Part shown: piece by piece, positions 12,559-35,749 of the stretch
How the letters are laid out: each line of letters opens with the position of its first letter
Numbering within the stretch: the first letter of the stretch is position 1
Source of the DNA: Prorocentrum cordatum
Lineage: Eukaryota
DNA: 64,000 bases
Direction: 5' to 3'
NCBI GenBank assembly: GCA_963575745.1
Contig: CAUYUJ010000114.1
Coordinates: 682,001 to 746,000 of the forward strand
The notes under the pieces: model-generated
Told to the model about the DNA's origin: nothing
The model's database searches: none
What the model saw: only the letters and a program-made list of their open reading frames with translations
Translations under genes and position numbers: made by a program

Positions 12559-13704
12559 ATGGGCGATGCAGGCGGATACACATGGGATGGCGCGGGAGGA
12601 TGGTGGGATAGCCGCAGCAGCGGCTGGCGTGGCTGGGAGGACGGCCATGATTGGTCAGCGAGGGGTTGGAGAGACTGGCGACAAGACGGGCACACGCCAA
12701 CGGAGGACGCCAAATGGCGCGATGGCCCTGCCGCCGCAGCAGCGGCGGCGGTCTCGTCTCAACGGCCGTCTCGCTTCGCCGCGCTTAGCGTTGTGAGCCC
12801 CCGCGCCCCTGGTCTCGGCAAGCCCGAATTCGATAATTTCGTGAGGGCTGCCCTCCGAAACGTACCAGAACTTGGGAACACAGTTTCAGGAGAGGGGTCG
12901 GGATCCCGAGCCGCGCCTGCGGCGCAGGAGCCCCGCGCCACCGCAGCGGCGGCGGCGCGCGGGCCCCAGGATTTCGAGAAGTTTGATGTTAATTATTTTT
13001 TGAGTTATGAAGAGAGGCTCGGCACTTCGTTTAAGCAACACAATCAAGCGTTGAAATGGTGGCGCCATCTGAATGAAGACCCAACTGCCCCGTTCGAGTC
13101 AGAAGCCAAGTGGTTTGACAATGCGAAGCCCACCATGGTCGCTGTTTGCGACCACGGTGCGAGGACGAGCTTTGGTTTCAAAAGCGACGAGGAAGTCCCT
13201 TGGCGGTGGCAAGAGATGGTGGCGACGCTCTGGGAGGAAGATATCAGGGAGGTCGTGGAGGGGCCCCGCAGCAGCGGGGCTCTGATCGGCTGTCCCCTCG
13301 AAGTCCGGCCAAACAGCTACGACCACATGCGTCAGAGTATTGTGCGCGCGCGACAGTTCGCGGGGCAGCGGGTGAAAGTGAAGCTGCCGATGTGGGATTT
13401 CGTGTTGCACCGCGACGACGGGACAGGCGTCCGTTTACACCCGCACTGGGGCGACAGGAAGGTCGAAGCTCTGCCCCTCGTCCCCCGCGCGGACACGGCG
13501 AGGCCACCAACCGCGGGTTTGGGCGGGAGCGACGGGTCAGGAACTTTTCGCTGGTACAAGGACCTCGGTGTGGAGCGTAAGGTCAAGCTCGACGCCGCCA
13601 GAGAGAAGGGGAGGCCGACGCCCTCTCAGGGACCCCGCAGCAGCGGGGCCGCGGCGTCCAGCACCAGGCCCTCGGCGTCCGCAGCAGCGGGTGGCAAACA
13701 GTAG
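12559..13704 (+). CDS. Transposon cargo ORF1, hypothetical protein (~381 aa; W/G/R-rich N-terminus plus globular domain)
   Basis: ATG at 12559 after a pyrimidine-rich leader. Complex protein-like core (QHNQALKWWR...WRWQEMVA...WDFVLHRDDGTGVRLHPHW). No family recognised. Confidence 0.7.
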   Translation: MGDAGGYTWDGAGGWWDSRSSGWRGWEDGHDWSARGWRDWRQDGHTPTEDAKWRDGPAAAAAAAVSSQRPSRFAALSVVSPRAPGLGKPEFDNFVRAALRNVPELGNTVSGEGSGSRAAPAAQEPRATAAAAARGPQDFEKFDVNYFLSYEERLGTSFKQHNQALKWWRHLNEDPTAPFESEAKWFDNAKPTMVAVCDHGARTSFGFKSDEEVPWRWQEMVATLWEEDIREVVEGPRSSGALIGCPLEVRPNSYDHMRQSIVRARQFAGQRVKVKLPMWDFVLHRDDGTGVRLHPHWGDRKVEALPLVPRADTARPPTAGLGGSDGSGTFRWYKDLGVERKVKLDAAREKGRPTPSQGPRSSGAAASSTRPSASAAAGGKQ

Positions 13705-14695
13705 TTTTGGGACCGAATAACTCCCCAGACGATTTGGTTTCGGAGTAGATGGCTCCGCAGCAGCAGCGGGGCTCGAATGAAGGGCGCGTTGCATTTCTGC
13801 AGGGGCGCGCGCGTCGGCCGCCGAGATCGGGGGCGCTCGTGCAGGCGCCGTGGCGCGATCTTCGTAAAGAAGTCTTCCCTCTCCTCCCTGTCCCCCCATC
13901 CCGCCGCCCTCAACGTCGGCTCCTCGCCGCCCGTTCCTCGTCGCTCCACGCCTGTTCGTTCTCCTCCAATTTCCTCTCCCGCTTCCTCGTTCTCTCCTTC
14001 CCATTTTTCCCTCCATCCCATTGCATCCCTGGCACCCCAGCGAAGTTCGCAGTTCGAAGTTTGAAGTTCGGAGTTCGAAGGTTGCAGTTTGAATTTCGAA
14101 GCTTCGCACTTCGAGGTTCGATCTTCGAACCTTCGTCATCTCGTCGTCGTAATCGTCGTCCTCGTTCGTCGTCGTCGTTCCTCGTCGGCGTCGATTGTCG
14201 TTGTCGTCGTCGCTCGTTGTCGTCGTCGCCGTCGTCGTCGTGGTCGGCGTCGTCGTCGTCGGTCGTTGTCGTCGCTAGTCGTCGTCGCTGGTCGCCGTCG
14301 TGGTCATCGTCCTCGTCGTCGTCGTCGTGGTCGTCGTCGCCCTCGTTGTCGCCGTCGTGGTCATCGTCGTCGTCGTTGTCGTGAAACGCCCCACGTAGGA
14401 GGAGCAGAGAAGGGAGTAAGGAGAAATGAGCACGGTGGAGGGAGGAGGGAGGATTGAACAGGAAGAGGAGGGTACAGATGGAGGTAGAAGGGATGAGGTA
14501 GTTCAGAAGTGGGAGCAGCAGACTGGCGCAATGGGAAAAGCCATGTGAGTGCAGGGAGGGATGGAAATGCGATAAAGTGAAGCCGCAGCCGTTGCAGGTC
14601 TGCCTCCCGCCGCGCCCGCCCGCCTCCGCGACTGGAGCCGCGCAGGAGCCTCTGCCGAAGTCTCCGCAGCAGCGGGGACTGCCAGAGGAGGCCCC
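13700..14695 (+). repeat. Diverged duplicate of 15555-16595 (upstream region and 5' end of ORF2)
   Basis: Colinear similarity from GTAGTTT..GG to GCCAGAGGAGGCCCCT, including the (GTC)n tracts; offset ~1855 bp. Confidence 0.85.
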
Positions 14696-16386
14696 TTCGC
14701 GGTTTTTGCGCCGGCATGGCGAGCATCGCGGGCAAGTACGACGTCGATGACTTCGAGCTCATCACGACGGAGGGCAGTGTTTGGCACTGGGCGACCATGG
14801 TTGTGCGGTTTCTCCAGTGGCGCAATCGTTGCCGCCACGCACGCGCCGTTGGAGTGAAGGGCCAGATGCTCGTCGACCAGGCGCGGCAGATGATGGAGGA
14901 GGCGCGCCGCACCGAGGAGATGGGCAAGATGACGCTTGAGATGTCGAAGAAGAAGGTGAAGGACATCCCAGGCAATATTCGGTACTTTTGCCGCCAGCCG
15001 CACCAGGAGAGCTGAGCGGCGATCGGGGCTGGGCCGATAGAGGAGGACGAGGAGGAAGAGGAGGGGGGATGAGGAGAGGAGGAGGAGGGGATGAGGAGTT
15101 GGAGGCAGCACGCGCACCCGCACTAAGAGCCGCCAGCCGCGCCCGTCTCCGAGCATGAAACCCGAGCTTGGCTGGAAGGGGGGAGGGCGGTAGCAGAAAC
15201 AGCGCAGGACAGGGATGGGAGAGGTCACGCATCCGCCGCATTAGCGGCGGTGGTACGACAGTTCTCATGGCGGCGCGGCGGTCGCTGAGAAATGGAGCAC
15301 GTGCGTGGGCCTGCGTGCGCTTAATTATGAGTGGCTCTCGTCCCCTCCCCTCCTCTTCCTCCATGAGATCTCTCTCCTGGTGCATATCCCCTGCCAGTGC
15401 TCGTCCTGCTCCTCTATCCGCCCCCCCTCGTCCGTTCCTGCCACCAGCCACATGGGGCGTTCTCAATCAACACCCCATTGAGTGTCCCCATGTGAAGGTT
15501 GCCCTTTGTCATGAGGGCGGACTCGCAAGAGCCGAGTGGCTGAAGAACTAATTAGTAGTTTGGGGTCCGAACAGCTCCCCAGACGATTTGGTTGTGGAGT
15601 AGGTGGCTCCGCAGCAGCGGGGCTCGAATTAAGGGCGCGTTGCATTTCTGCAGGGGCGCGCGCGTCGGCCGCCGAGATCGGGGGCGCGCGCGCAGGCGCC
15701 GTGGCGCGATTTTCGTTTTGAAGTCTCCCCTCTCCTCCCTGTCCCCCCATCCCGCCGCCCTCAACGTCGGCTCCTCGCCGCCCGTTCCTCGTCGCTCCAC
15801 GCCTGTTCGTTCTCCTCCAACTTCCTCTCCCGCTTCCTCGCTTTTCCTTCCAATTTTCCCTCCATCCCAGTCCGTCCCTGGCACCCCAGCGACGTTCGCA
15901 GTTAGAAGCTGGAAGTTCGGAGTTCGAAGATCGAAGTTTGAATTTCGAAGCTTCGCGCTTCGAGGTTCGATCTTCGATCCTTCGTCATCTCGTCGTCGTA
16001 ATCGTCGTCCTCGTTCGTCGTCGTCGTTCCTCGTCGGCGTCGGTTGTCGTCGTCGTCGTCGCTCGTTGTCGTCCTCGCCGTCGTCGTCGTGGTCGGCGTC
16101 GTCGTCGTCGATCGTCGTCGTCGCTAGTCGTCGTCGCTGGTAGCCGTCGTGGTCATCGTCCTCGTCGTCGTCGTCGTGGTCGTCGTTGCCCTCGTTGTCG
16201 CCGTCGTGGTCATCGTTCTCGTCGGCGTCGTCGTCGTCGTTGTCGTGAAACGCCCCACGTAGGAGGAGCAGAGAAGGGAGCAAGGATAAATGAGCGCGGT
16301 GGAGGGAGGAGGGAGGACTGAACAGGAAGAGGAGGGAGCAGGCAGAGGTAGAAGGGATGAGGTAGTTCAGAAGTGGGAGCAGCAGA

Positions 16387-19116
16387 GTGGCGCAAGGGGA
16401 AAAGTCATTTGAGCGCAGGGAGGGATGGCATTGCGATAAAGTGAATCCGCAGCCGTTGCAGGTCTGCCCCCCGCCGCGCCCGCCCGCCTCCGCGACGGGA
16501 GCGGCCCAGGGCATGGAGCAGCCTGGCGCGACTGGAGCCGCGCAGGAACCTCTGCCGAAGTCTCCGCAGCAGCGGGGGCTGCCAGAGGAGGCCCCTGATG
16601 CAGTTCCGCATGGAATGGCAGATCCAGCACCGGCCTCCGCAGCAGCGGGGGGGGAGGTTGCAACGAAACTGCGGTCATTGTTTTCGTCGATGTCTGATGC
16701 CCAGGAAAGCGTTTCGAAGACCCTGCTGGTTGCCCAGGAATTGATGCAGAATGGCCTGATCGAAGATGCGCGGAAGTTAACGGCCGCCGCCAACCGCCTT
16801 GTAGTCATAACGGCTGAGGAGGCGGCTTGCGCAGCAGCGGGGGCATCCGTGGAGCCAGGCGCCGCCACAGTGGTAGTCGAGCCTGGACAGGGTGGCTCCG
16901 ATGACCCGAGACCGAGATCTCCCTGCGCGACTAATTGGCAACATCGGCAGGCTCTGATCGCAGCGCGCAAACTGCGTGAAAGCTCCTCCGCAGCAGCGGG
17001 GGCCCGCGTGATCAAGACTCTCGCCTTGACCTCGAAGGCTCGGTCGCCAGCGCTTCCTGTCCAAGAGGGCTTCCCAGAGGAAGGCCGCCCGCACTTCCCA
17101 TCGGAAGAGCGCGGCCCGAGCCATTCCAAGCCTCTTGTGCCCCTGCTGTACGACGACGAAGACCAGGTGCAGGAGGGGCAGACAGAGGCGCGCGTGAATC
17201 TGGCTTTTGCTTCCCTCGTCCTGCGCGCGGGCGCCTCCCTGTCGGATTGGGTCGCAGCTGTCAGGGACAGGCGCGAAGGGGTCGTCTTAGTCTCCTTCGA
17301 GCCTGGTGCACGCATCAATCGCGATCGGCGGAAGCAACATCTCGACGATCTCATCCGCCATAGTGGCTTCCACGGGGAGGTCGCGCGCGAGTGCGTTGGG
17401 GCTCTCCTCTGGGTTCCCGAGCGCGTCGAGCAGTGCGAGGTGCTTCGCTGGCACTGCCACGGGAAGTTCCTGGTTCAGGCCTGGTCGGTGACCCTGGCAG
17501 CGGTGGCTCACAATCCGAAAGCAAAGGAAGGCAAACTCTCCATAGCAGTGGGGGGCGTGTTCTTCCGACACCAGACGAGCCTCGCGGGACAACCGTGGCC
17601 CGAGAACTTCCGCAACGGGCTGCGGAACCTGGTGTTGTGGAACCGAGTGCGTATTCTCGCTGGGATCTTTGACGCAGGCAGGGAGGATCTTTCGGAGCTG
17701 CTCAGAAGTTGCGGCGCGTCTGGTACAGGCGTACTCGGCTTGGCTTTGTGGTGTCCGACAAAAGGTTGCCACGTGACGCACCCGCACTACATCGTGATTC
17801 TTGGCCCCGCTCAGGTTCGCGAGTGCCCTGCGGGCGGGCAGCCTGATCTGCCGCACTGGTTGAATCAGGATTCCCAGCCTCCGCAGCAGCGGAGGCTCCT
17901 CACCAGCCTGCAGTACCGCCAGTTGGATTGGGTGGCGCGTCCGACCTGGGTCAGGCTCACGGACGCGGAGCGCAAGGAGCAGGATACATATGACTGGCCG
18001 CACTTGCACAGGGTGATCCACAAGGCCCAGGATGCGAACCGCCTCACGGAACATTGCCACACATTGTTCGTTTTTGTAGAAGCCAAGAACAGGAAGTCTG
18101 GCAAAGGCGCCGCGGCCAGGAAGAAGGATCGGAAGCGGGAAGCCAAGTGGGAAAAACAGCGGGGAGAGTGGGCGGAGACAGAACCCGAAGCAACAGCCTC
18201 AGCAGCAGCGGAGGCGCACGGAGACCAGGAGGAGGCGGAGACAGAATCTGAAGCAGCAGCCTCCGCAGCAGCGGGGGCGCACGGAGCCCAGGAGGAGCTT
18301 GAGGGCGACGAGGCCCCGCTCTGGATCGACTCCTGCAGCCTCACGCCGCCCCAGGACGAACAGAGCAACCCTGACAGAGGTGAGAGGGAGGAGAAGAAGG
18401 AGAAGGAGAAGATGAAGAAAAACAAGAAGAAGAAGAACAAGAAGAAATATATCAGGAGCAGAACCCCAAAGAGGAAGAAGCCCTCGCAGCAGCGGGGGGG
18501 CAGCCGTTCCACACGCAGAAAGCGGGAGCAGAGGAGCAAAGACCGAATGAGGAGAGTGCCCTCGCAGCAGCGGGGGCGCAGCCGCTCCAGACGCAGAGGG
18601 CAGGAGCAGAGGGGGCGCAGCCGCTCCAGACGCAGTGGGCAGGTGGAGGGCGGCGACCGCAGGGCGGCGTGGGCAGGGCGGTTCCTGCCCGCGCCGCCCG
18701 CGCACCCCCCCCACACAGGTCAGGTGATGCTGAGGCCGAGGGCATGGCGCCCGCTCCTCCCAGGCCAGATATGCCGTCCGCCAGGCATGCCGCCAATGAT
18801 GCCACCACCACCGCCATTTCCCCCGCGTGGAGGAGGACGCCGCGGGGCCCCCCCGCTGGAGGAGACACCGCACCCTACGCCACCGCGGCTCGTCCCGAGG
18901 CAGCCGCCGCACCCTCCGCCGAAGCGGCTCCTGCCAAGAGAGTCGCAGACGCCCCGCCCTCTGGCAGCGCCGCTCGTCCCGAGGCCGCCGCCGCAGCCTC
19001 CCCCGCCGCAGCTCCTCTCCAGGGAGTCGCCGCTTCCTGCGGACACGCTTGCGTTCAACAGTGACGCGTTCGAGGCATTGTCGCGGCGCCGCAGCCCTTC
19101 AAGCGACTCCAGCTGA
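16387..19116 (+). CDS. Cargo ORF2 (~870-909 aa): degenerate EEP-like central domain with K/R-rich and Pro-rich C-terminus
   Basis: Long open frame, first ATG at 16513. LRNLVLWNRVRILAGIFD and HCHTLFVFV align by eye with LATILQDNSVDILCGDFN and AHYPLLFQM of the EEP cargo protein. Confidence 0.7.
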   Translation: MAQGEKSFERREGWHCDKVNPQPLQVCPPPRPPASATGAAQGMEQPGATGAAQEPLPKSPQQRGLPEEAPDAVPHGMADPAPASAAAGGEVATKLRSLFSSMSDAQESVSKTLLVAQELMQNGLIEDARKLTAAANRLVVITAEEAACAAAGASVEPGAATVVVEPGQGGSDDPRPRSPCATNWQHRQALIAARKLRESSSAAAGARVIKTLALTSKARSPALPVQEGFPEEGRPHFPSEERGPSHSKPLVPLLYDDEDQVQEGQTEARVNLAFASLVLRAGASLSDWVAAVRDRREGVVLVSFEPGARINRDRRKQHLDDLIRHSGFHGEVARECVGALLWVPERVEQCEVLRWHCHGKFLVQAWSVTLAAVAHNPKAKEGKLSIAVGGVFFRHQTSLAGQPWPENFRNGLRNLVLWNRVRILAGIFDAGREDLSELLRSCGASGTGVLGLALWCPTKGCHVTHPHYIVILGPAQVRECPAGGQPDLPHWLNQDSQPPQQRRLLTSLQYRQLDWVARPTWVRLTDAERKEQDTYDWPHLHRVIHKAQDANRLTEHCHTLFVFVEAKNRKSGKGAAARKKDRKREAKWEKQRGEWAETEPEATASAAAEAHGDQEEAETESEAAASAAAGAHGAQEELEGDEAPLWIDSCSLTPPQDEQSNPDRGEREEKKEKEKMKKNKKKKNKKKYIRSRTPKRKKPSQQRGGSRSTRRKREQRSKDRMRRVPSQQRGRSRSRRRGQEQRGRSRSRRSGQVEGGDRRAAWAGRFLPAPPAHPPHTGQVMLRPRAWRPLLPGQICRPPGMPPMMPPPPPFPPRGGGRRGAPPLEETPHPTPPRLVPRQPPHPPPKRLLPRESQTPRPLAAPLVPRPPPQPPPPQLLSRESPLPADTLAFNSDAFEALSRRRSPSSDSS

Positions 19117-20585
19117 CGGCGCGCGGCTGCGGAGACCTCCGCAGCAGCGGGGGTGGTCTCCGCAGGGGTGATCTCCGCAGCAGCGGGGGTTAGCATAATT
19201 AAGAGATCTGAGGCCCGGGCTCGGCGCGCGCGCGAGGAGGCAGGCGCTCGCATTGAGCGGCTGAAGAAATCGTGGTCGTTGTCGCCGTGCTCGTCGTCGT
19301 CGTTTGCTTTTTGCTGGGGGGGAAAGGGGGGCGAGCAAGAGGAGGAGGAGGAGGAGGGGTCCTGCAGGGGCCAGGACCGACACCGGGACCGGGACCGGGA
19401 CCAGGGGGAGAGCGGGACCGGGACCGGGAGCGGGACAGGGACGGGGAGCCCTGGACGAGCAGCAGAACCGACCACGGGACCGGGACCGGGACCGGGGCCG
19501 GGACCGGGACCGGGACCGGGAACGGGGGTGCTGGTCCCGGTCCCGGTCCCGTGGTCGGTCCTGCTGCCCGTCCTGGGCTCCCCGCCCCTGTCCTGCTCCA
19601 TGTGTCACCTCTTTGTCCCGCCCCCAATCTCTGCCGTGCCGTTTGGGTTCGAGATCGCCAGCCATGAGGGTTAGGAAGCCCGACACAAGGATCGGGCGAT
19701 GCCGCGTCGGCGAGTTGAGGAATAGGAAACCCGACACAAGGACGGGACGATGCCGCGTCGGCGAGAAGAGGGGTTTTCGGAAACCAGACCACAGACCTCA
19801 TTCGAGCAAGCGCGCTGGGGCGGCGGCGCAAGGCGAGCTCCAAGAAACAAGCCCTCGCAGTAGCGGGGGCTGCTGTAGCCCTCGCAGCAGCGGGGGCTGC
19901 TGTCTTGGAGCGTGGTGGGTTGTGGGATGAGAAGACTGCTCGGAGGATAGGCGTGGAAGATGACGATGGGTTCGATCAGGCACTTTGGTACCGCGACCAT
20001 TGGGGCAACTGGTACAAACTAGGGTCCAAGATGCCGCCAGTCGGCAGCTCCTGGCAAGAAGGCGCCGACCCCCTTCGCATGTAATTACGGGGCGGATGAA
20101 CACGACAGTGCCCCCACATGGTTGATTGTACGGTCCTCAGGATGACCGCGACATCCCGAGCGCACAAGGGGAACGCTCCTCCGCAGCAGCGGAGGGATGT
20201 CGCGAGAATTTCGCCGAGGGGGGGTGACCTCGGCGGAGGGGCGCACTCGCGCGCGCGCGGGGGAGCGCGGTTTCGCGCGTCGCGTGCGGCATCGCATGCG
20301 GTGTGGGGGAAAACACGACATCTGTGCTGTCACCTGTGTCCTGCTCTCTCCTTTGCTTCGCTTCCCCTTGCACTCCCTCCTGCAACCTCCCGCCCGTCAT
20401 TATGTCTTTGTAGTGATCATCGCTTCCATACACGCAACTCTCACAGCGCCCCTTTCTCTCACAGATGGGTTCGGGGTGGGCAACCTTTCTCTCACACAGG
20501 GGGGGGCCGATGTATCAATGCTTCTCCTGTTCAGGCGGATGTGCGCGTATCGAAAAACTGAGAAGGCCGCGTCGACCCGCCGTTC

Positions 20586-20630
<45 letters not shown>

Positions 20631-20851
20631 GTCTCTCTCTCTCTCTCTCTGTCTCTCTCCCTCTATCTGCCTTTCCTCTCCTTCTCCTTTTGCTCAAGTG
20701 CGGGCAGGCCGCGGATCCGTGAGGCCCCTCCTTCTGTCCGCGCGCGCGACAGGCACTCGTGCTTTAAGCGGGGCCCCGCAGCAGCGGGGGCAACCGTCGC
20801 GGAGCATCTGTTTGGGAAGCTGCCCCCGCAGCAGCGGGGGCGCCTGGATAG

Positions 20852-26140: not shown

Positions 26141-26308
26141 AGCGACCACAAGAAGTGGTTAGGTTTTGGAGTCCGATGAGAAGTAGGAGGATTTGTTCGA
26201 GACGAGGAGTCCGCTTTCCATAGCCGTTTTCAGGCGGATCACCAGTGAGGGGAGTTGACACCTAGAACGCGGGCGCCTTCGCAGCAGCGAGGGCTTGCGC
26301 GCGGCGGC

Positions 26309-26800: not shown

Positions 26801-27731
26801 AAAACCCCTGAGAAACAGAAAATATTGTCTCGAGGCACGCTCTGCCTCTCGCTCCGTGCGGTCGTCTTGGGCGGCGTCGGGCCTCCGCTGACTGATTACA
26901 TGATGCATATATGTATATATTGTGTATGTATGGTGTGTCGACGTATATGTATGTACATACGTATATGTGTGTATTTATATATATGTATGTATATATAACA
27001 CGGTCGCAGGGGCGTGGCCCGCGGCCCAGGGCGGGGCCCGAGACTCTGGGACAGGACATAGGGCCTCATCATCGTAGGATGCTCATCATTCTCATCATCG
27101 CCATGATGGGGGGGGAGGAGGGGACAGCTACCAGCTGCGCGCTGGCGCCACCGCCGCTCCCCCGCGCCCGCTGGCGCATCCGCAGTGCGGCTGCGGGAGG
27201 GGCTGCGCCTCAATTCCTGCAGAGGCGGCCTGCAGGGATGTTGCACTTTTGGCGTCTAGTACAAACGCCCGAGCGGCCCGCTTTTTTTTGGGGGGGGCTC
27301 TTGCTTCACGGTGGAAGAGGAGACTATCATCATCCCCCGTGCCGCGTTCGCCTTCCCTCGACGACGATGTCGACGACTTCCTACATTCTGGCCTTGTTTT
27401 CTGGGGAGTGTTCTCGGAGTCGTTCGGGGCGTTCGTTCGTGTGCGCATGCTTCTGAGTTTTCGGCGCGTCGTTCGGGCCGCTCGTCCTGGTGTGAGTCGT
27501 TCGGGCCCCTCCTCACCAGCCCATCTCACAGCAGCAACCCTCGCGAAGCATGCCGACGGTCGTGTTTTTTCAGGCGTGTGTCCGCTGGTCCCCGCATATC
27601 TCCCTTGTTCCTCGTTCCTCCCGCCCCCTTGTACATCCTCCTTGTGGGGGGATGCGGCCGTTTGCTTGCCCTGCAGCGCTGGGCTCGAGACCAGAGGGCG
27701 GCCGCGTGCGCGCGCGCATGGCTTCGGCATC

Positions 27732-29192
27732 ATGGCAGCCGCAGCCGCTCCGCCTCCAGACCCAGGAGACGCTCGCCCTGCAAACGCGCCTCTGCGAGTC
27801 GGGCACGACCGCGAGGCCAGCGAATTTGTGGAGTTTTGGTACCAAGAAGACAAAAAGAAAGACCCCGACTTCGTGCTCATGAACCCACGGAAACTAAAGG
27901 GGACAATATTCGGATTCGGGTACGTTATGCGCCGCAGCAGCGGCGCGGCTTGCCATTATGACTCTGGCAGACGCATGTGTAAGAAGATTCATTTCTGCTC
28001 GCAGTGGCCGTGTCCCAGCGACCATCGTCTGGCGGACGGTTCCGTGGACTACAATAAGTGGTCAGACTTGCAAGCGCCCTGGCATTTAGTGCAATGCGCG
28101 GGCGGGTGGCCCGCAGGAGCGGGAGCCCCCGCAGCAGCGGAGGCGCCGGCCGAGGCGTGCGAGGCCCCTGCTGAAGCGGCAGCGGAGCCGTCGGTGGGCC
28201 CTGCTGAAGGCCCCGCAGCAGCGGGGCCGTCAGCGGAGGCGTGCGTGGCCCCTGCTGAAGTGGCAGCGGAGCCGTATGTGGGCTCTTCTGACGGCCCCGC
28301 AGCAGCGGGTGCGTCAGCGGAAGCGTGCGCGCCTCCTCCTGAAGTGGCGGCGGCGCCGTGCGCGTGCCCTTCTGCAGAGCCCGCCACAGCGGAGGCGTCC
28401 GTAGGTCCTGCTGGCGCGCCTGGCGCCGACGCAATCGCCGAGGCCGCTTCCGCAGTGGAGTCTGTCTTGAAGGACTCCGCGGCAACAGCAGCTCTCGCAG
28501 CAAAGGAGGTTGCCCCTGTCGCTTTCCCCCAACCCGCCCCGCTTGCTGTTCGCGACGTAGCGGAACCCGTGCTTCCAGGGGCGGAAGTTGCGGCAGTTAC
28601 CGCCTGTGAACAGACAGCCGCGACAGCAGGCGCTGCGGTTGCCCCTGCAGGCGCCCCCGCAGTAGCGGGGGCGCCTGCAGGGGCACTTTCAGAACAAGGC
28701 CAGAGGTGCTTCGAGAAATTGATGAAGCTGTCGCGCAGTATTCGCGGAAGGCCGGGGGGAGGCCGAGAGTGGATAGGATATTCTGCTTTCGTAATCTTTG
28801 CGCTGTTGCGGAAGGTGCGCGTCTACGTGTGGGAAGGACGCAACAGAGTCGACCTTTGCAAAGCTGTCTTGCCGCCGTGGAAACTAGAGGAGTTAACCCG
28901 CGAGCCTGCGGTGGACGCGATCGCGTGTTGCGCCGTCCCCCGAGACTCGGGGCCACCGGACTGGGCCCCCGTGTCGGAGGAGTATCCTTTGTTTCGATGC
29001 AATCATTTTATCGCAGGCGTCTCCACCGACTTTGTGGATTTCACGGGAGATGCTTCGACGGTGGACGGTTTCTATTCGGCTCTCGGTGTGTTCGTCGTGT
29101 CCACAGTCGCAGACGGGGACTGCGGTTTGGATTGCATGTTGCAGATGACCCAGGAGGTTTCCACGCGAGAGTCTCGCAGGGAGCTCCGCCAG
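27732..29192 (+). CDS. Transposase gene exon 1 (small Cys/His region, Ala/Pro/Glu repeat, OTU-like domain)
   Basis: In frame from ATG 27732. Ends ...TVADGDCGLDCM...RELRQ at CAG|GA and splices in frame to DIADYI at 29367. Confidence 0.7.
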
Positions 29193-29366
29193 GACAGTTG
29201 CTCTCTCCGACCACCCTGATCCTTCGCTTCCATCTCTGCTGCCCCCACATGCTCTTCCCCTCCTTGTCTCCCCATTCTGCCTTCATGCCTCTCCCATCCC
29301 GCCCTTCTCTCCCCTCGTGCCCTCCCCACCGAGTCTCCTTGCCCCTCCTCCATGCCCGCCCGCCAG

Positions 29367-32300
29367 GACATCGCGGACTACATCGTGCAAAGGGCGCGGC
29401 TGGCGTGGTTCCTCGACGCGATGGTCCTGACACAAGAAGTCACGCAGGATGACGTCCAGGAGCTTCGTCGCCTGCAGAGCGCCTTAGACGACGAAGAACT
29501 TGTCCCGCAGCCTGGCCACGCCGCCCCTCCGAGAGCACAGGGCGTTGCCGCCGCAGCAGCGGCGGCGCCACCTGAGGACTTGGCCGTGGTGGAAGTCGAC
29601 GCCGAGGCTGTCTGTCAGGAGCTCGTGCAAGCCATCCAATGGTGGACAGGACTGACAGACGCTGCGTGCGCCCTGGACGTCGCTCGGGAGTTGATGCCCG
29701 CAGAGCGGGAGGAGCAGCTCTTGAGGTACAGGAACCGCGGCTGCGAGCGCAAAGCCCCCGCCCAAAACAAGAAGCGCGTGGTGGTCCCGTCGCTCCTGTG
29801 CTCGAGGATGGAGATAGCGGGTGCTTTCGACGAGCACATGCGCTCTTTAGGCTGGACGCCTGGAGACCGCTTTCCGTATGGAGGGGCGCGTTCATTCATG
29901 GATGCGTGGGACTGGGGTTCCATGTCCCGTCTCCCTCTCAGGAAGCGCACGCACGTTGTGCGGCGCTGGCACAAGGCTTTTCTGTCGTCGAAATACGCCT
30001 CCGCAGTAGCGGAGGCTGTTCGGCAGCCGCGGGGACACGAGAAGCAGCACGGGCAGGGGCGCCTCCTGAAGTGGAAAGGGCGGAAAAGGATACCACAACA
30101 GGGACAGGGCCCAGCTCGAAAATGCCCTTGGTTGCGGCAAGCTCTGTTTGAATGGTGGAGTTCCATTCGGCACAGTGTGGATTGGAAGATGATCAAAAGT
30201 GGACTGCGAAGTACCCAAAGAGAGCCAGCGAAGATAGCAAGGTTCACGCAAAGCATGCTCCAGACCAAAGCGTTGGAGCTCATGAGCGAGTACGTCACGC
30301 AGCAGCTGCGGATCGGGCAGCGACCCGCCGCCGTGGAGTTGAGGTCGCGCTGGTGGGCCTCCTGGCGCAAGGAATACGGCCTCAGCATGCGGTACCCGAA
30401 CAGGAAGTACAAGTGCCCGCTGCCCGTCTTGGAAGAGCGCCTCGAGCGAGGCTGGCTGAACGTGTTTAGGGTGCGCGCCGCGTGCGTGCTACTCAACGAG
30501 CAGGATCCCGAGATGGAGAACTTCGACCAGTCGCCTTTCCACCACAATGAAACAGGATCAGCTGGCGTGAGGACCCTCGCAGTAGCGGGGGTCGAAGTGC
30601 CACTGGTGGAGTGCCACGGCGCGGTGCGGGAGCGGTGGACGGCCAATTTCATGACAATGAGCGACAAGGATCGACTGCGGAGAGAAGGCCCCCCACCGAT
30701 GGAGTGCACGTTCAAGGCGGAGGGGGGAGGAGAGAAGTTGAGGCCGCGCCTGCTCGAACACCTTCGGCGCCGAGGGTTCGGCAGATGGGTGTCGGCGACC
30801 ACCAGCACCAAGGGGTCTTACCGGACACCGTGCGTGCTCGCGTACCTGGACCGCCACCTCCCTCATCTGCCAGAGCCTCCGCAGCAGCGGGAGTGGAGAA
30901 TTATGATGGCGGATGATCATGGCCCTCACTTGTCCCCGCTTGTGAGTAAGCTATGTTGGTCTCGAGGGTACGTGTTCATCCCGCACGGGGGCGGCGTAAC
31001 CCCAATCCTCCAAACTGTGGACACACATCTGAATCAACACGCCAAGCGCGAGTACATGAAGAGAGAAGGAGCCGCGCTGCTGAGAGCCATGAGGCTGGGC
31101 CAGTGCGTCCCACAGCTGGACAAGTTAGAATGCATTGACTTGATGGTGGAAGTGATGTCCCAAATGAGTCTTCACTTGGCTGCGGCAGACGGGTACTGGG
31201 AAACTGGTTTCAAGGCAAATCTGTGGGATGCGGACTTGGACGCGCGCATATGCAAGGAGGCAGGCCATTTCTGGAGAAAGTTGGGGATGCGTAAGAAGGT
31301 CGCCGCCGCAGTAGCGGAGGTCGAAGAAGAGGTGCAGGCGGGGCGCTTGAGATGGACTTACAAAGACATCATGCGATTGGTCCTCCCGCACCCTCGACGC
31401 GGCCACTGCGACGACGTGTTCGCAAACCTTGGAGACGACGCGGCTCTGGACGAGGGCGACAAGATTTGGCATGGCATGGAGGGGGCGGAAGACGCAGCCG
31501 AGGGTCTCCGCAGCAGCGGGGGCACTGAGGGTGGCAATTCCGTCGACGCCCTCGAAGGAGATGAAGATGATGGGAGCGAGGACGACGACGGGTGGAGCGC
31601 CGCTGGCGAGTTTGACTACGAATGGGCCAATCAAAGTCTCACCGCAGCAGCGGCGGGGGAGAGCGCGCTGGAGGCACCGCCTGGCCTGTCGACGTCTCGT
31701 ATGGAAACTGCGGAGCAGACGTCTGAATTGATGAGAACGTATTCGTCGATCGCTGAGGAGTTGCGCAGCTGGGGCGACATCGCGGGGGCCACGTTCATGG
31801 AGACGCAATTACGGAAAGAACGGAGGCGAGTGCGTGAAGTGTCGAAGGAAGATCCTGGGGTTCAGCGAGCCCTCGCAGCATACGAGGACGCCCGCGAGGC
31901 GACGCTCAGAAACGAGAAACGACAGCGGGATGTCGAGGCGCGGCGCAGAGAAGAGCTAACCCGCCTGGGGGACGACGTAAAGAAAGCGCGCAAGCTGCTG
32001 AGGACACAGCAAGCCAAACTCTTAGACGCAGAGGCAGCCATAGATATCAAACACAGGATGAAGCATGTCGGGTTATCCGAGCTGGGCGCGGGCCTTCGCA
32101 GCTGCGGAGGCGTGGCGGGTCGAACGTCGAGGTACGACGCGCTGAATCGCCTTGCGATTTTGGGTTCTGGGCTTTCTGCAGCTCAGCGGTCAGATTTTGA
32201 CTGGTTTCGGCGGGAATGGGACGCCGCTGGCATGGAGGACTTCGGTGGAAAGTGGCCGGAGACGTTTGCCACATGGTTGCAGAACGTCATAGACGAGTAC

Positions 32301-32405
32301 TTGGGGGGCAACCCGAGAGCTTTCAGCATGTTTGTGCACAGTGAGACGCGACGCCGTCTGTCTGGCTCCCTGGCGCTTGCGCTCCCTGCAGCTGGGGGCC
32401 TCTGA
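29367..32405 (+). CDS. Pogo-like DDE_1 (DD35D) transposase, exon 2
   Basis: Motifs NFDQSPF, IMMADDHGPH and GVTPILQTVD, with 35 residues between D2 and D3. Preceded by a CENP-B-type HTH-like region (LRQALFEWW...SRWWASWRKEYGLSMR) and followed by acidic and coiled-coil tails. Confidence 0.88.
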   Translation, partial: DIADYIVQRARLAWFLDAMVLTQEVTQDDVQELRRLQSALDDEELVPQPGHAAPPRAQGVAAAAAAAPPEDLAVVEVDAEAVCQELVQAIQWWTGLTDAACALDVARELMPAEREEQLLRYRNRGCERKAPAQNKKRVVVPSLLCSRMEIAGAFDEHMRSLGWTPGDRFPYGGARSFMDAWDWGSMSRLPLRKRTHVVRRWHKAFLSSKYASAVAEAVRQPRGHEKQHGQGRLLKWKGRKRIPQQGQGPARKCPWLRQALFEWWSSIRHSVDWKMIKSGLRSTQREPAKIARFTQSMLQTKALELMSEYVTQQLRIGQRPAAVELRSRWWASWRKEYGLSMRYPNRKYKCPLPVLEERLERGWLNVFRVRAACVLLNEQDPEMENFDQSPFHHNETGSAGVRTLAVAGVEVPLVECHGAVRERWTANFMTMSDKDRLRREGPPPMECTFKAEGGGEKLRPRLLEHLRRRGFGRWVSATTSTKGSYRTPCVLAYLDRHLPHLPEPPQQREWRIMMADDHGPHLSPLVSKLCWSRGYVFIPHGGGVTPILQTVDTHLNQHAKREYMKREGAALLRAMRLGQCVPQLDKLECIDLMVEVMSQMSLHLAAADGYWETGFKANLWDADLDARICKEAGHFWRKLGMRKKVAAAVAEVEEEVQAGRLRWTYKDIMRLVLPHPRRGHCDDVFANLGDDAALDEGDKIWHGMEGAEDAAEGLRSSGGTEGGNSVDALEGDEDDGSEDDDGWSAAGEFDYEWANQSLTAAAAGESALEAPPGLSTSRMETAEQTSELMRTYSSIAEELRSWGDIAGATFMETQLRKERRRVREVSKEDPGVQRALAAYEDAREATLRNEKRQRDVEARRREELTRLGDDVKKARKLLRTQQAKLLDAEAAIDIKHRMKHVGLSELGAGLRSCGGVAGRTSRYDALNRLAILGSGLSAAQRSDFDWFRREWDAAGMEDFGGKWPETFATWLQNVIDEYLGGNPRAFSMFVHSETRRRLSGSLALALPAAGGL

Positions 32406-32689
32406 GAGGCGCGGCCCGCCGCAGCAGCGGCGAGGCGCGGGGTGTGAGTTCGGGCAGCAGCCGCTGCTCTTCCACCTGCCTGCGACTGAGGTGCCGCGTG
32501 CGCGCGCGGACGTAGCGCAGGCCTTGCGCAGAAGAAACAGGGAGGAGGGGGGGCGGGGGAGGAGGTGAGAGGAGGGGGAGAGCAGGCAGGGGGAGAAAAC
32601 CACGCGGGTGTCGATCACTCCGCCTCTCCTCCTGCTCTCCCCCCTCCTTCTCCCTGATCTCTCTTGGTCATTATATCATTCCTCTCTCT

Positions 32690-32905
<216 letters not shown>

Positions 32906-33034
32906 CCCGCCCTTTCCTTCCCTATCCGCCCCGTCTTCCTCCTCTTCGCCCCGCCCCCCTCCTTCCACCGCCGTTTCGGCCCCAGGAGTTCGGCTCTGAC
33001 GGCCGCCCCCCCTGCAACGCGGGGGCAGGGAGCG

Positions 33035-35016
33035 ATGGCCGCGGCCGCCAGCAGCAGCAGCAGCCCATTGGGCCCCGCAGCAGCGGGGCCTCGGGGCCGA
33101 CTGACGGCAGTGTTCACAGCGAAATCTGGGAAGGTTTGGCGACCTGTAGGTGGTCAGGCAGAACCCTGGAAGGGTCCTTGGGCCACTGTGCCAGAGAGAA
33201 CCCCCGCAGCAGCGGGGGCTGCGCGGCCTGGCGTCTCAAGCTCAGCAGCGGCGGCGCGATCAGAAGTTTCTACGATACGCACCCGCCCAGGCGACTCCGT
33301 GGTGGGTCCGAGCGACGACGAAGAGCCTCAGGAATTTAGGGGCTGCAGGCCGCCCAACGATGTCGAGCGGCGCGAATGCCGTCTTCGCGACACCGTCCCG
33401 CCAAAGTTCTTCTGCGAAAGAAGAGCGGCTGACGTGAACAGGCCACGGAACGACAACGTGGGCAACCTTTCCGTCCTGTTCGGGAACTGGGGCTCCATGC
33501 CGAGCGAGACCAACCACGCGGACCAGCGGCGGAGACTTGAGTTGCAGCTGCGGCATTGCCCTGCTCTCGTGGCGTGCTTTGCGGAATGTGAGGAGCAGAT
33601 GGAGTCAATCCTACAGCGGCCAGGGAGACCACCGCCGCTGCAGGCGGACGCCCCCGCAGCAGCGGGGGCGTCAGCAGCGGAGGGCCAAAGCAGCAGCAGC
33701 GGTGGGCCTTTTGTCGCCCCCGCAGCAGCGATGGCGACAGCAAGAGGAAGTCGTGCTGCGAGTGTTGGCGATTGCCAACAGCTCCAGAATCGACCAGAGT
33801 ACGAATACTTGACCCTGCGCGGGCGTGAGGACAAGTCCTTGTGCATCGCTGCGCGCGCAAATCTGTGTTACGAAATGCGGCTGCTCCACTGGGAAAGGAG
33901 TGTCGACGGCCACTACAGAACAGCAAGAGGGCGCAAGATGGAAGCGTTCTCGAGGATCATGGTGGTTGAGCTCTACTTCGATCAAACCTACGCCCACTTC
34001 GGCTCGAAAGTGCGGGCGCGCGCGGTGCACCTCCACCGCGACACGGCGAAAAATTCCAGAGGCTTTAACGAGGCTCACAAGACGTGGCGGCCGAGGTTGG
34101 CGACCATCTTGCAGGACAACAGCGTTGACATCCTTTGTGGGGATTTCAACATGGCGCTCACACAGACGCTGCCGAGTCTTCGGGGTCTAGGCATGCGATT
34201 GGAGACGGCAGCAGCGTACTTCTGGCGCGGATTGGACGGCACTCCGTGCTTGGACAGCTGCGGCATCTTCGTTCTCAACAGGCCTGGCGAGTACACCCTG
34301 TGCTGGCCGCTGAGCGCCGTGCACGACAGAGACGAGACGGGGTTGCTCTTCGCACGCAAGTCGGTGATCGGTGAGATCGGGTACCGTAACAGAAGCTAGG
34401 CAGAGGCCCCCGCAGCAGCGGGGGCCGCCACCAGCCCATCATCGCAGCCGACGTACTGGCACCACAGCCAGAACGGAGGCCCTGGGATGCCTTACTCTTG
34501 CTACTACCCGAAAAAAGACGCCCGCGAGCACCTCCAGGATTTACTGACTCAGTCAGAGGAATGCCAACGCAAGATCCAAGAGAAGGAGAGTGAGAAACTG
34601 AGGCGCGCCGAGGCTGAGGCTAGAGGGGGCCACCGCTTCTCGAGTAATCGCGGGGTGACCCTCTTCCGCGCGTTGCAGAAGACGTTCCCGCCAGAGACCG
34701 TGGAGGTGGAGGGGCGCTGGCACGGCGGCGCCCACTACCCTCTCCTGTTCCAAATGCGCATGGCCTGCGTGCGTTCGCCGGGGAGGAAGCGGGAGAGAGC
34801 CAAAGAGAAGAAAGACAGGCGCGCCCAGAAACAGCTGGCAGCTGCGCTCAGGGCGCCGCTGCCGCCCGAGCAGCACGGGCCCGAGCGCCAGGCACCAGAG
34901 CAGCACAGCGAGAGGGACGAGCAAGACGAGCGCGCCCAACAGGCGTGGCGCCCACCAAGATGGGCAGACGAAAGCGCGGACGACGGCCGCGACATGCCCG
35001 CGGCTGGCGATGGAAG
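33035..35016 (+). CDS. Cargo exonuclease/endonuclease/phosphatase (EEP)-fold protein, exon 1, with one in-frame TAG at 34397-34399
   Basis: EEP motifs in order: VLFGNW, FAECE, VHLH, ILCGDFN and GAHYPL. ORFs 33035-34399 and 34487-35104 share a frame and are separated by a single TAG. Confidence 0.7.
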
Positions 35017-35202
35017 GTCGCGGCGGGGGGTTGAAAGGGGGAGGGGGGGAGAGGGGCGGTGGAGCACGGGGAGGGCAGGAGGGAGGAGAGGGAATGAGGA
35101 ATAGGCTGAGCAGGACGAGGGATGACATAAGGAAATGAGTGTCGGGAAGGGGCGGGAGTTGACAGGGAGGGGATATAGAAATAATTATTTATCACCCCCC
35201 AG

Positions 35203-35749
35203 GTGGCAGCCGACCCCGCAGTGCCCATCTCCAGGGCCTGCGCCGCTGGAGCAGCGAGGGCAGCGCGGCGCCGCCATCTACATCTCGGACGCGATCGCTG
35301 CCCTCGGCCACGAGCCGCCAGAGCCCCCGCAGCAGTGGAGGCCACAAACGCCACGGCAGCAACCAACAGACGAGGAGTGGCGCAGGGATGAGTGGTGGCG
35401 CACCAAGGAGGGCGAGGAGCGCGAGTGGCAACAGCCGAGCGGCGAGGCTTCCTCGCTGCAGGACCGCATGGTCGACTCCGCCTGGCGCGACATGCAAGTT
35501 GCATTCGGCAGCGACCAACGCCCCAGTGACTGGTGGAGCAGCCGCAGTGGGTGGAGTAGCGGCCAGGGGCACTGGGAGGTCGCGACCACGACTTGGAGGT
35601 GGGTCGAACCCCCCCCCCCGAACCCAATCCCTGGGAAAAGCTTAGTTGAACCATCGCACAGGAGCCGCCCCTCCGCAGCAGCGGAGGGAGGCCTCATCGG
35701 CCGAACGTCGACCCTCCGCAGCAGCGGAGGCCTTGCCAATGCATCGTGA
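35203..35749 (+). CDS. Probable last exon of the EEP gene (W-rich low-complexity tail)
   Basis: A GT-AG intron at 35017-35202 joins ...GDG-R to WQPTPQ in frame (AG|G at both junctions). Confidence 0.5.

Follow-up and report, generated by a model that had tools for sequence, protein, structure and literature searches.

The locus and its stem-loops

The 64,000-nucleotide stretch of the Prorocentrum cordatum genome analysed here (assembly GCA_963575745.1, contig CAUYUJ010000114.1, positions 682,001 to 746,000 of the forward strand), which we call the window and number from its first letter, contains a DNA transposon of 24,094 bp bounded by terminal inverted repeats (TIRs). The element carries many copies of a short hairpin, with the core CGCAGYAGCG and flanks that pair outward. 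This hairpin, or tag, is under purifying selection on nucleotides throughout the element: in coding sequence in three frames, in spacers and at positions just past stop codons. The features of the element are as follows; its gene models rest on open reading frames (ORFs) and homology and are not annotations.

11992-36085 (+): the whole TIR DNA transposon, 24,094 bp, with all 56 stem-loops and all long ORFs on the + strand
11992-12022 (+): left TIR, 31 bp, starting TA
11995-13701 (+): ORF_a, open frame, function unassigned, 5 stem-loops
12026-12105: three subterminal copies of the palindrome CCCTCTGTGACAGAGGG, distinct from the tag
16366-19113 (+): ORF_c, basic Arg/Ser/Lys-rich tail, 8 stem-loops, 3 homologues
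20852-23341 (+): ORF_d, called ParB-like in a preliminary description of the window (label unconfirmed), 5 stem-loops
23903-24084: five subterminal palindromes in an internal array, three facing one way and two the other
24446-25399 (+): ORF_e, 2 stem-loops, with a paralogue, ORF_e2
26309-26797 (+): ORF_e2, paralogous to ORF_e but truncated, with its 2 stem-loops retained
27134-27931: contig depth about 50-fold over the surroundings, no stem-loop
27732-29195 (+): first part of the transposase gene, with an OTU-protease-like motif (by eye), 5 stem-loops
29196-29369 (+): intron-like 174-nt insert bounded by the 10-nt direct repeat CGCCAGGACA, no stem-loop
29370-32405 (+): transposase part, 7 stem-loops, invariant D392, D522 and D557 (numbering of the ORF 29352-32405)
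33035-34399 (+): ORF_f, with a 'GDFN' motif like that of the endonuclease/exonuclease/phosphatase family (by eye only), 4 stem-loops
35992-36040: two subterminal copies of the palindrome CCCTCTGTGACAGAGGG, right end
36055-36085 (-): right TIR, identical to the left at 31/31 positions

The preliminary description had estimated by eye 55 to 60 copies of the motif, always in the + orientation and with none seen outside the TIRs. An exact count agrees with this: CGCAGYAGCG has 56 matches in the window, 51 with the loop AGCA and 5 with AGTA, all of them on the + strand within the element (span 12613-35726), and neither strand of the remaining 39.9 kb contains a copy. The positions that had been offered as examples belong to real copies, but the exact core starts lie 1-4 bases off each of them. 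Dinucleotide-preserving shuffles (100) gave an expected count of 0.68 and a maximum of 3, and the G+C content of the 39.9 kb outside the element is the same as that of the element. The core is sharply conserved and does not resemble a decaying repeat, because one-mismatch variants are few: 17 on the + strand of the element (5 of these being the AGTA copies), 6 on its minus strand and 7 outside it. The 56 copies are listed here with their loops, stems and settings.

12609-12626 (+): AGCA, stem 7 bp; ORF_a, RSSG
12728-12751 (+): AGCA, stem 10 bp; ORF_a, AAA
13260-13283 (+): AGCA, stem 10 bp; ORF_a, RSSG
13633-13648 (+): AGCA, stem 6 bp; ORF_a, RSSG
13676-13693 (+): AGCA, stem 7 bp; ORF_a, 24 nt before the end of the stop codon
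14659-14680 (+): AGCA, stem 9 bp; between long ORFs
15605-15624 (+): AGCA, stem 8 bp; open frame 15559-16140, RSSG
16559-16580 (+): AGCA, stem 9 bp; ORF_c, PQQR
16634-16651 (+): AGCA, stem 7 bp; ORF_c, AAA
16830-16839 (+): AGCA, 3 core pairs only, 18.7 bits, the weakest copy; ORF_c
16985-17002 (+): AGCA, stem 7 bp; ORF_c, AAA
17876-17897 (+): AGCA, stem 9 bp; ORF_c, PQQR
18259-18278 (+): AGCA, stem 8 bp; ORF_c, AAA
18481-18498 (+): AGCA, stem 7 bp; ORF_c, SQQR
18556-18579 (+): AGCA, stem 10 bp; ORF_c, SQQR
19135-19154 (+): AGCA, stem 8 bp; core 24 nt past the ORF_c stop codon
19169-19192 (+): AGCA, stem 10 bp; second of a tandem pair past ORF_c
19850-19871 (+): AGTA, stem 9 bp; between ORFs, opening a tandem pair with 27-nt spacing
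19875-19900 (+): AGCA, stem 11 bp; between ORFs
20177-20196 (+): AGCA, stem 8 bp; between ORFs
20774-20789 (+): AGCA, stem 6 bp; upstream of ORF_d
20821-20842 (+): AGCA, stem 9 bp; 15 nt from core end to the ORF_d ATG
21582-21593 (+): AGCA, stem 4 bp; ORF_d, AAA
22020-22031 (+): AGCA, stem 4 bp; ORF_d, PAAAE, with AAA/AVA in homologues to 34% identity
22303-22314 (+): AGCA, stem 4 bp; ORF_d, RSSG
22805-22830 (+): AGCA, stem 11 bp; ORF_d, AAA
22875-22886 (+): AGCA, stem 4 bp; ORF_d, AAA
23350-23361 (+): AGCA; core 7 nt past the ORF_d stop codon
24412-24431 (+): AGCA, stem 8 bp; 19 nt from core end to the ORF_e ATG
24799-24820 (+): AGCA, stem 9 bp; ORF_e, AAA
24830-24849 (+): AGCA, stem 8 bp; ORF_e, tandem partner 30 nt on
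25427-25448 (+): AGCA, stem 9 bp; core 31 nt past the ORF_e stop codon
26052-26071 (+): AGCA, stem 8 bp; between ORFs, duplicate partner of 27933
26275-26294 (+): AGCA, stem 8 bp; 19 nt before the ORF_e2 ATG, duplicate of 24417
26663-26682 (+): AGCA, stem 8 bp; ORF_e2, duplicate of 24805
26693-26712 (+): AGCA, stem 8 bp; ORF_e2
27928-27947 (+): AGCA, stem 8 bp; OTU-like part, MRRSSGA, same place in the related loci L001, L012 and L019
28129-28140 (+): AGCA; OTU-like part, first of three copies spaced 84 nt
28209-28228 (+): AGCA, stem 8 bp; OTU-like part
28296-28309 (+): AGCA, stem 5 bp; OTU-like part
28648-28677 (+): AGTA, stem at least 13 bp; OTU-like part, in a 21-nt block missing from L001
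29546-29567 (+): AGCA, stem 9 bp; transposase, G-C here, A-T in L001
29997-30016 (+): AGTA, stem 8 bp; transposase, ASAVAEA
30572-30593 (+): AGTA, stem 9 bp; over the TLAVAG motif, hairpin in 11/18 aligned sequences
30878-30891 (+): AGCA, stem 5 bp; PQQR before the conserved WRIM, hairpin in 7/18
31306-31317 (+): AGTA; over the AVAEV motif, hairpin in 15/18
31504-31523 (+): AGCA, stem 8 bp; transposase, RSSG
31642-31653 (+): AGCA; acidic linker of the transposase, AAAAG
32417-32432 (+): AGCA, stem 6 bp; core start 32420, the 15th base past the transposase stop codon, kept in L001
33070-33091 (+): AGCA, stem 9 bp; ORF_f
33201-33218 (+): AGCA, stem 7 bp; ORF_f
33647-33672 (+): AGCA, stem 11 bp; ORF_f
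33721-33730 (+): AGCA, core pairs only, 20.5 bits; ORF_f
34405-34426 (+): AGCA, stem 9 bp; core 12 nt past the ORF_f stop codon
35669-35688 (+): AGCA, stem 8 bp; open frame 35126-35746
35713-35730 (+): AGCA, stem 7 bp, the last copy; about 360 nt from the right end

Within the element, ORFs hold 2.5 copies per kb and the remaining DNA 1.9 per kb. Copies often stand in tandem pairs 27-50 nt apart, and a hairpin-free gap of 1235 nt includes the stretch 27134-27931. A covariance model built from 150 stem-loop copies and used with a cut-off of 22 bits finds 56 matches on the + strand of the element, namely 54 of the 56 exact copies and two variants (12934 and 32089). Its single match outside lies on the minus strand at 50528-50553 (24.3 bits). 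This isolated stem-loop adjoins an 11-nt satellite and has an AGTC loop, the type found in other lineages; it may be a chance occurrence or a relic of a related element. The DNA that serves as the outside control is repeat-rich and does not represent ordinary genes, since the 75 long open frames of the flanks (1-11991 and 36086-64000) contain no Pfam domain.

Pairing and covariation in the stem

The motif forms a stem-loop in which an invariant CGC/GCG closing stem carries the tetraloop AGCA or AGTA and is extended outward by 1-8 further pairs (window consensus GCCYC-CGC-AGCA-GCG-GGGGC). That the flanks co-vary to lengthen the stem had been proposed from inspection, and three measures now bear this out. 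Five flank positions in each of the 56 copies provide 280 cells, and these comprise 213 Watson-Crick pairs, 41 G.T, 10 A.C and 16 other combinations. Uninterrupted pairing extends on average 4.5 bp beyond CGC/GCG in the window, compared with 2.8 bp when the 3' flanks are permuted among sites, and the highest value in 1000 permutations was 3.48. The covariation score of an alignment of 150 copies, made up of the 56 from the window and 94 chosen at random from 288 in relatives of the transposon, is 0.314, against 0.149 for shuffles (none of 500 reached 0.314) and 0.107-0.162 for slid partners. At the pair next but one to the core this alignment contains GC 43 times, CG 32, UG 21, UA 16, GU 6 and AU 4, with 26 unpaired or other. 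Uninterrupted stems measure 3-13 bp in the window; in the relatives the average stem is about 5.7 bp, that is, 3 core pairs and a mean extension of 2.7.

The mismatches in the stem are informative about the strand on which it forms. The excess of G.T over A.C in the window (41 against 10) consists mostly of T in the 5' arm facing G (33 cases), and at flank position 2 T.G, with 16 occurrences, is nearly as frequent as C-G, with 19. At the first two flank positions in the related loci the corresponding numbers are 52 G.T and 21 A.C. Genomic copies differ by substitutions that affect both strands alike (run X5, for example, has C>T 19 and G>A 23), so that the excess of wobbles cannot be attributed to mutation bias, and the + strand is therefore the strand that folds. 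The comparison of G-T with C-A mismatches had been suggested in the preliminary description as a check for a strand-specific hairpin, and its outcome, together with the co-varying stems, upholds the idea advanced there of a signal in the form of an RNA or single-stranded DNA hairpin. Individual changes can be followed in copies that were duplicated within the element: in the pair 24417/26280 one G to A change turns T.G into T-A, and in the pair 24805/26668 two C to T changes give T.G wobbles.

Excess over composition and protein sequence

Long + strand ORFs contain 42 of the 56 copies, and the other 14 lie between ORFs. The 42 are read as Ala-Ala/Val-Ala (29), as Arg-Ser-Ser-Gly (R-S-S-G; 8) or as Pro-Gln-Gln-Arg (P-Q-Q-R; 5). 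For comparison we used a null in which synonymous codons were permuted within each ORF, so that protein and codon usage were kept (200 shuffles). The motif CGC-RGYN-GCG occurs 33 times in six window ORFs and 4.9 times in their shuffled counterparts; five of the six exceed all 200 shuffles, and the remaining one ties the maximum. (The OTU-like part was counted from 27747, five codons inside the ATG at 27732, which altered no count.) In 16 ORFs of related loci, 166 occurrences compare with 19.4 after shuffling. The reverse-complement motif is not enriched over codon shuffles. Selection thus acts on nucleotides and not on protein, because of this excess, because copies are read in three frames and also stand between genes, and because hairpins are kept while the encoded residue changes, as described below. 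The earlier conclusion that the motif reflects no protein constraint and is a signal at the level of the nucleic acid is therefore sustained.

The tag in relatives of the transposon

Metagenome contigs were scanned with an alignment of the transposase, and this yielded 25 loci at 28-80% identity, which were oriented with the gene on the + strand. The non-redundant set comprises 23 loci and 99 kb, whose hosts may be few lineages. These are genomic contigs rather than cDNAs, since their ends are microsatellites; a 12-nt sequence from the 3' part of the dinoflagellate spliced leader is absent from all 25 loci. In the 23 loci CGC-RGYN-GCG has 296 sense and 15 antisense matches, where base composition predicts about 5.5 per strand. 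Twelve of the 15 antisense matches are self-complementary loops at the sites of sense copies, which leaves 3 that are independent. The tag is therefore a family-wide feature, and this is the main new result beyond the preliminary description.

Summed over the 25 loci, the loops most often take the forms AGTT (110), AGTC (51), AGTG (36), AGTA (32) and AGCA (27), and each form tends to belong to particular loci:

AGCA, with AGTA: the window, L001, L002, L010
AGTT: L005, L006, L013, L018
AGTC and AGTG: L017
GGTG: L023, with 23 copies in 4.9 kb
GGTA: L015, L021
GGTC, GGTT and GGTG: L019
mixed AGTN: L004, L007, L009, L011, L012

A quick tree groups like loops together. Three loci, L006, L012 and L016, have AT-rich islands of TAATTAATTA-like repeats at the ends or in the interior of their GC-rich contigs.

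Conserved positions and placement by genes

The preliminary description had proposed comparing motif positions across copies, and such a comparison finds hairpins in the same alignment columns of relatives at 35-50% protein identity. In an alignment of 18 transposase ORFs, two of which (L001 and L002) are near-duplicates, a hairpin lies over the motif AVAEV in 15, TLAVAG in 11, IRSxGY in 10, SLRSxG in 10, GRSxG in 8 and the PQxR that precedes WRIM in 7. Where the fourth loop base falls within an NGC codon, the residue becomes Ser, Gly, Cys or Arg according to the loop, with its neighbours and the hairpin kept, as at the sites SLRS[S/G/C]G and IRS[R/C]GY. At sites that require valine, the silent third base of the GTN codon is the fourth loop base favoured by the lineage. 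Within variable linkers, hairpins at one alignment position may be read in different frames, depending on the lineage. The homologues of ORF_d, of which there are 12, down to 25% identity, show PAAAE, SAVAD and PAVAG in one column, and distant members repeat SAVAG/SAVAD.

Comparison of the window with L001, to which it is 76.9% identical at the nucleotide level over 6219 columns, shows 12 of 17 window copies with 10/10 identical cores, and stem changes that are compensatory (G-C to A-T at 29552) or lead to wobble. Hairpin 28658 is covered by a 21-nt in-frame indel, missing from L001 and without a recognisable target duplication, and three copies belong to an 84-nt tandem repeat in the OTU-like part. 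Hairpin units are therefore gained and lost locally.

With respect to the genes, a core starts 7-31 nt past the stop codon in five window ORFs, namely ORF_c, ORF_d, ORF_e, the transposase and ORF_f. Among 12 loci, 8 have a core start no more than 45 nt past the transposase stop codon, for which the probability at a random position is 0.146. Three ORFs, two of them paralogues, have a hairpin that ends 15-19 nt before the ATG.

Interpretation of the stem-loop

We favour, at about an even chance of its being correct, the reading that the hairpin is a repeated protein-binding stem-loop in the sense transcripts of the element. According to this proposal it would fold in those transcripts and serve as the tag bound by a protein sensitive to sequence as well as shape. 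The tetraloop R-G-Y-N stands on the invariant C-G/G-C/C-G stem, the outer 1-8 pairs are free to vary as long as pairing is kept, and AGTA is used in the window where a valine codon is needed. The features recognised by the reader would be the invariant CGC/GCG and the RGY of the loop. This reader is probably encoded by the element and evolving with it, because lineages have their own loop types and no tag occurs in the neighbouring DNA. Action in RNA is suggested because the polarity follows the genes, because wobbles of the G.U type approach Watson-Crick frequency at one position, and because copies cluster past stop codons. The tolerance of T.G beside C-G in the window fits G.U in RNA better than G.T in DNA. 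The placement of hairpins just past stop codons is suggestive of a bound protein that handles or protects transcripts; its candidate roles would include shielding from decay (also after upstream stops), definition of 3' ends, export, anti-silencing and packaging. We also count in favour of this reading that the stretch 27134-27931 contains no tag; it is probably a nested foreign repeat, far more abundant than the element, because its depth is about 50-fold that of its surroundings.

Several observations weigh against the reading of the hairpin in sense RNA. The tag is not indispensable to the family, since it is missing from the distant relative L022 and sparse in L014 and L016. Some hairpins (19856-20836) precede the next ORF by as much as about 1 kb, and these would require long untranslated regions or read-through transcription. 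Two intron-like stretches, of 174 nt in the window and about 328 nt in L017, are free of hairpins; with about 1.4 expected in them, this says nothing either way. No RNA-binding domain, nor any other Pfam domain, was recognised in any ORF of the element. Calculated with RNA parameters, the mean folding energies in the window are -16.2 kcal/mol for the sense and -14.9 kcal/mol for the antisense strand, yet copy by copy the sense hairpin has the greater stability in no more than half of the cases (28 of 56). DNA parameters give the sense strand the advantage in 43 window copies and the antisense strand in 10. The asymmetry of energy between strands is small, and these values fit single-stranded DNA equally well.

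A hairpin that acts in single-stranded DNA, extruded on the sense (non-template) strand during transcription or exposed in a replication or repair step, would be read by the transposase, by a nuclease-like ORF or by a priming or repair factor, and we regard it as unlikely, though the main rival. Polarity, covariation and wobble bias fit any single-strand fold, the preference of DNA parameters for the sense strand extends to the related loci (182 copies against 90), hairpins are present in intergenic DNA too, and ORF_f has its GDFN motif, seen by eye and unconfirmed by Pfam. Against this, the transposase looks like a cut-and-paste DDE enzyme (DDE_1 score of 0.95 and the invariant D, D, D), the chemistry of which uses double-stranded DNA, and no HUH, Rep or primase-like protein appeared in Pfam scans of the ORFs. 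G.T near the frequency of C-G at one stem position is less expected of a DNA hairpin, and the enrichment past stop codons points to the message. A double-stranded site CCGC-N4-GCGG, bound by a dimer (the ParB-like ORF on a parS-like site, the transposase or a host factor) and compacting or marking the element, has the usual shape of a dimer site, a conserved inverted repeat with a fixed 4-bp spacer. ORF_d, which is conserved in relatives, has an N-terminal 'HPQNRGG' that by eye resembles a ParB/Srx motif. Such a site does not predict the covariation of the outer stem among four pair types, the excess of G.T over A.C or the absolute polarity of an asymmetric spacer in coding and non-coding DNA alike, and no ParB match was obtained for ORF_d in Pfam (E <=5), in a PDB profile search (E <=10) or in the ESM Atlas, so that this explanation is very improbable. 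The loading site for a ParB-like cargo that had been suggested earlier finds no support here, nor does the ParB label itself.

A functionless micro-palindrome that propagates or corrects itself by small insertions, tandem duplication, gene conversion or template switching, and is harmless in all frames, would account for the in-frame indel that spans exactly one hairpin, for the three copies in the 84-nt repeat and for the 20-nt consensus GCCYC-CGCAGCAGCG-GGGGC shared by most copies of the window lineage. The nearly single loop type of some elements (51 of 56 in the window, 23 copies in L023, 18 in L005) looks like concerted evolution. Yet hairpins occupy the same alignment positions at 35-50% protein identity, several of them over conserved motifs without an indel, and the 12 sites shared with L001 have 120/120 core identity against a background of 77%. 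Insertion would produce both orientations, whereas we count 352 sense copies and 3 independent antisense ones, and template switching leaves the asymmetric loop, the wobble bias and the placement past stop codons unexplained. We therefore consider this explanation improbable; a micro-element spreading within the transposon, which had been offered earlier as an alternative, does not serve as the main explanation, although local gain and loss do occur. Finally, the motif could be an artefact of composition or protein sequence, for instance of GCN-coded alanine-rich linkers in GC-rich DNA: 29 of the 42 ORF copies encode Ala-Ala-Ala or Ala-Val-Ala, and runs of GCC/GCA/GCG are self-complementary. 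This is scarcely credible in view of the shuffles (0.68 against 56 for dinucleotides, 4.9 against 33 for codons), the lack of enrichment of the reverse complement, the 14 copies outside ORFs and 13 in the other two frames, and the absence of copies from 39.9 kb of equally GC-rich flanks.

Comparison with known systems

In the literature searched, which leaves out most subscription journals, we found no description of the motif or of hairpin-tagged DNA transposons; 85 papers contain the 10-mer itself, which appears, among the matches listed, in primers or unrelated sequence. The closest system in architecture appears to be the dispersed packaging signals of single-stranded RNA viruses and of the hepatitis B pregenomic RNA, as portrayed in parts of PMC6281560 and PMC7612645, the latter describing stem-loops with an RGAG loop motif. 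As those parts present them, these signals resemble the tag in being many stem-loops on one strand within coding sequence, with a shared loop motif, variable stems and, in those viruses, one binding protein. They differ in that the tag belongs to a TIR DNA transposon in a eukaryotic genome and keeps three stem pairs invariant. No capsid, replicase or reverse transcriptase gene was recognised by Pfam among the ORFs of the element, and the formation of particles by it would be pure speculation.

Hairpins with AGNN tetraloops are recognised by the yeast RNase III Rnt1p, according to part of PMC4334505. The loops AGCA, AGTA, AGTT, AGTC and AGTG found here fit A-G-N-N on a G-C-rich stem. Rnt1p reads the shape of the AGNN loop through its double-stranded-RNA-binding domain and cleaves about 14-16 bp from the loop. 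The present stems, mostly of 5-11 bp (3-13 in the window), are too short for such a ruler; moreover, L015, L019, L021 and L023 use GGTN, the closing CGC/GCG never varies here, the host is no yeast, and no gene for an RNase III came to light in the element.

The bacterial repetitive extragenic palindromic (REP) sequences and bacterial interspersed mosaic elements (BIMEs), served by the RAYT/TnpA-REP proteins, are extragenic and occur in both orientations, and their HUH Y1 transposase recognises the hairpin in single strands. They share with the tag GC-rich palindromes of 20-40 nt repeated many times and a short conserved tetranucleotide. In contrast, 42 of the 56 tags are in ORFs, they have one orientation, the transposase is DDE-like and Pfam scans found no HUH family. 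Rickettsia palindromic elements (RPEs) are mobile in-frame mini-insertions of 100-150 bp that are absent from orthologues. In both cases palindromic DNA is tolerated in coding genes and read as extra peptide, but the unit here is 18-26 nt, holds the same positions across deep divergence and often involves no indel. A miniature insertion element, like the RPEs or miniature inverted-repeat transposable elements, was considered and rejected: L001 has 12 of the 17 compared copies at the same sites, the orientation is uniform, the 21-nt indel over one hairpin shows no recognisable target duplication, and copies overlie conserved motifs without indels. Also rejected was a ParB-parS system, in view of the lack of a ParB/Srx match for ORF_d and of a site with single-strand signatures and strict polarity.

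Chi, the FtsK-orienting KOPS and DNA uptake sequences are oriented motifs that form no hairpin and act in chromosomal DNA; they resemble the tags in strict strand polarity over a long stretch and differ in that the tags are hairpins. According to the 'hairpin rule' of Mimivirus, transcripts end 3' at hairpins that have no shared sequence and are intergenic only. Those hairpins, like some of the present ones, lie just past genes, whereas the tags share sequence and also lie within genes.

The carrier element

The TIRs each start with TA, which may be regarded as a TA target-site duplication or as part of the repeat. Between them, at 23903-24084, five copies of the subterminal palindrome CCCTCTGTSACAGAGGG stand mid-element without the 31-bp terminal repeat. 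This array may be a head-to-head junction of two subterminal regions, in which case the 24-kb element would be composite. Internal segmental duplications of 89-92% identity pair 13700-14646 with 15554-16510, 24312-24910 with 26175-26773 and 25772-26136 with 27650-28012, and the stem-loops within them are kept in both copies.

The 1017-aa ORF 29352-32405 has 39 homologues in a close search, none of them with a Pfam domain, and its profile retrieves 2818 representative proteins at E <=0.001 and 584 at E <=1e-30. The residues D392, D522 and D557 do not vary among 12 aligned homologues, and 34 residues separate the last two; their catalytic role is assigned by eye. The nearest ESM Atlas clusters carry DDE_1 (score 0.95, 202/256 features). 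Pfam at E <=5 returned no family, including DDE_1, DDE_3 and Transposase_1, for this ORF or its homologues P0002 and P0004, and a PDB profile search with the transposase gave no transposase match. Searches of the PDB by sequence and by profile with the transposase, ORF_d and ORF_f gave nothing, profile scans of viral contigs with the transposase and ORF_d found no relative, and Pfam searches of 26 + 12 + 15 + 75 ORFs gave nothing above noise. The element resembles the pogo/Tigger (DDE_1) branch of the Tc1/mariner superfamily in its TIRs starting TA, in its three invariant acidic residues with their spacing of 34 and in its DDE_1 neighbours in the ESM Atlas. The element differs from pogo/Tigger in having no Pfam match, a transposase of about 1000 aa fused to an OTU-like region, a length of 24 kb and several extra genes. 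The reading as a pogo-like transposase is a lead only.

In the homologues P0002, P0004 and P0005 the OTU-like N-terminal region is fused to the transposase, and OTU protease domains have been described in DNA transposons of other kinds, Ginger among them (PMC2836005). In the window the two regions are parted by the 174-nt insert, which is missing from P0004, P0005 and P0010. The insert (29196-29369) is pyrimidine-rich and would have GA..AG ends; it could be a non-canonical intron or a small insertion with a target duplication. The C-terminal third of ORF_c contains a strongly basic Lys/Arg/Ser tract followed by a proline-rich tract. The basic tract is partly encoded by stem-loops (SQQRG) and is a candidate nucleic-acid-binding tail. 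For ORF_f, the endonuclease/exonuclease/phosphatase assignment received no confirmation from Pfam.

The element is highly repeated in several sequencing runs, from organisms and from metagenomes, and in one of them 11,818 contigs fall on 12 kb of it. The stretch 27134-27931 has a summed contig depth of about 50 times that of its surroundings in all four runs, with many loose ends at 27468-27652. Among the 40 listed of 302 substitutions, none lies in a hairpin core; only about 1 would be expected, so that this is no test. Contig joints between hairpins, for example from 30591 to 22813, may be assembly jumps.

Flanking DNA

The flanks of the element are filled with microsatellites, (GAG)n, (TG)n and (GAC)n. 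Five places in them have an 11-nt satellite, GGGGCCTCTTG, and a tandem repeat with an 18-nt unit occupies 51040-52100. In its microsatellites and 11-nt satellite the window resembles eukaryotic DNA. A gathering-threshold search of Rfam and a tRNA scan of the window found no family and no tRNA gene. Two pairs of direct repeats, 57846-58189/60052-60395 and 62275-62718/63380-63822, have 97-99% identity, and near them the minus-strand ORF 58671-59705 has a weak, phage-integrase-like Pfam match (E 0.008, below threshold). This region may be another mobile element.

Implications

Recognition of DNA transposons is generally ascribed to their ends. In the present element one sequence-defined, strand-specific hairpin is repeated throughout the interior and within the coding part of every gene, and nucleic-acid and protein codes overlap, such that the hairpin dictates amino acids and the residue follows the loop base. 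As an extension of the proposed binding in sense RNA, the tag may be a self-recognition code, in which a protein of the element would read the tetraloop hairpin on nascent or mature sense RNA and so tell the transcripts of the family and, by way of nascent RNA, its active copies from all else in the cell; we think this unlikely on present grounds, though it deserves statement. If it were true, loop and reader would co-evolve and sub-families would become private, and the family would provide a case of a DNA transposon with RNA-guided cis-preference, or of virus-like selective packaging or export of RNA. These results point to a hairpin-reading factor in a family that has thousands of members in aquatic metagenomes and no Pfam model. 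Such a reader, if found, could explain how transcripts are marked against decay or silencing or for export or packaging, and with its tag it would constitute a compact pair of RNA signal and binder.

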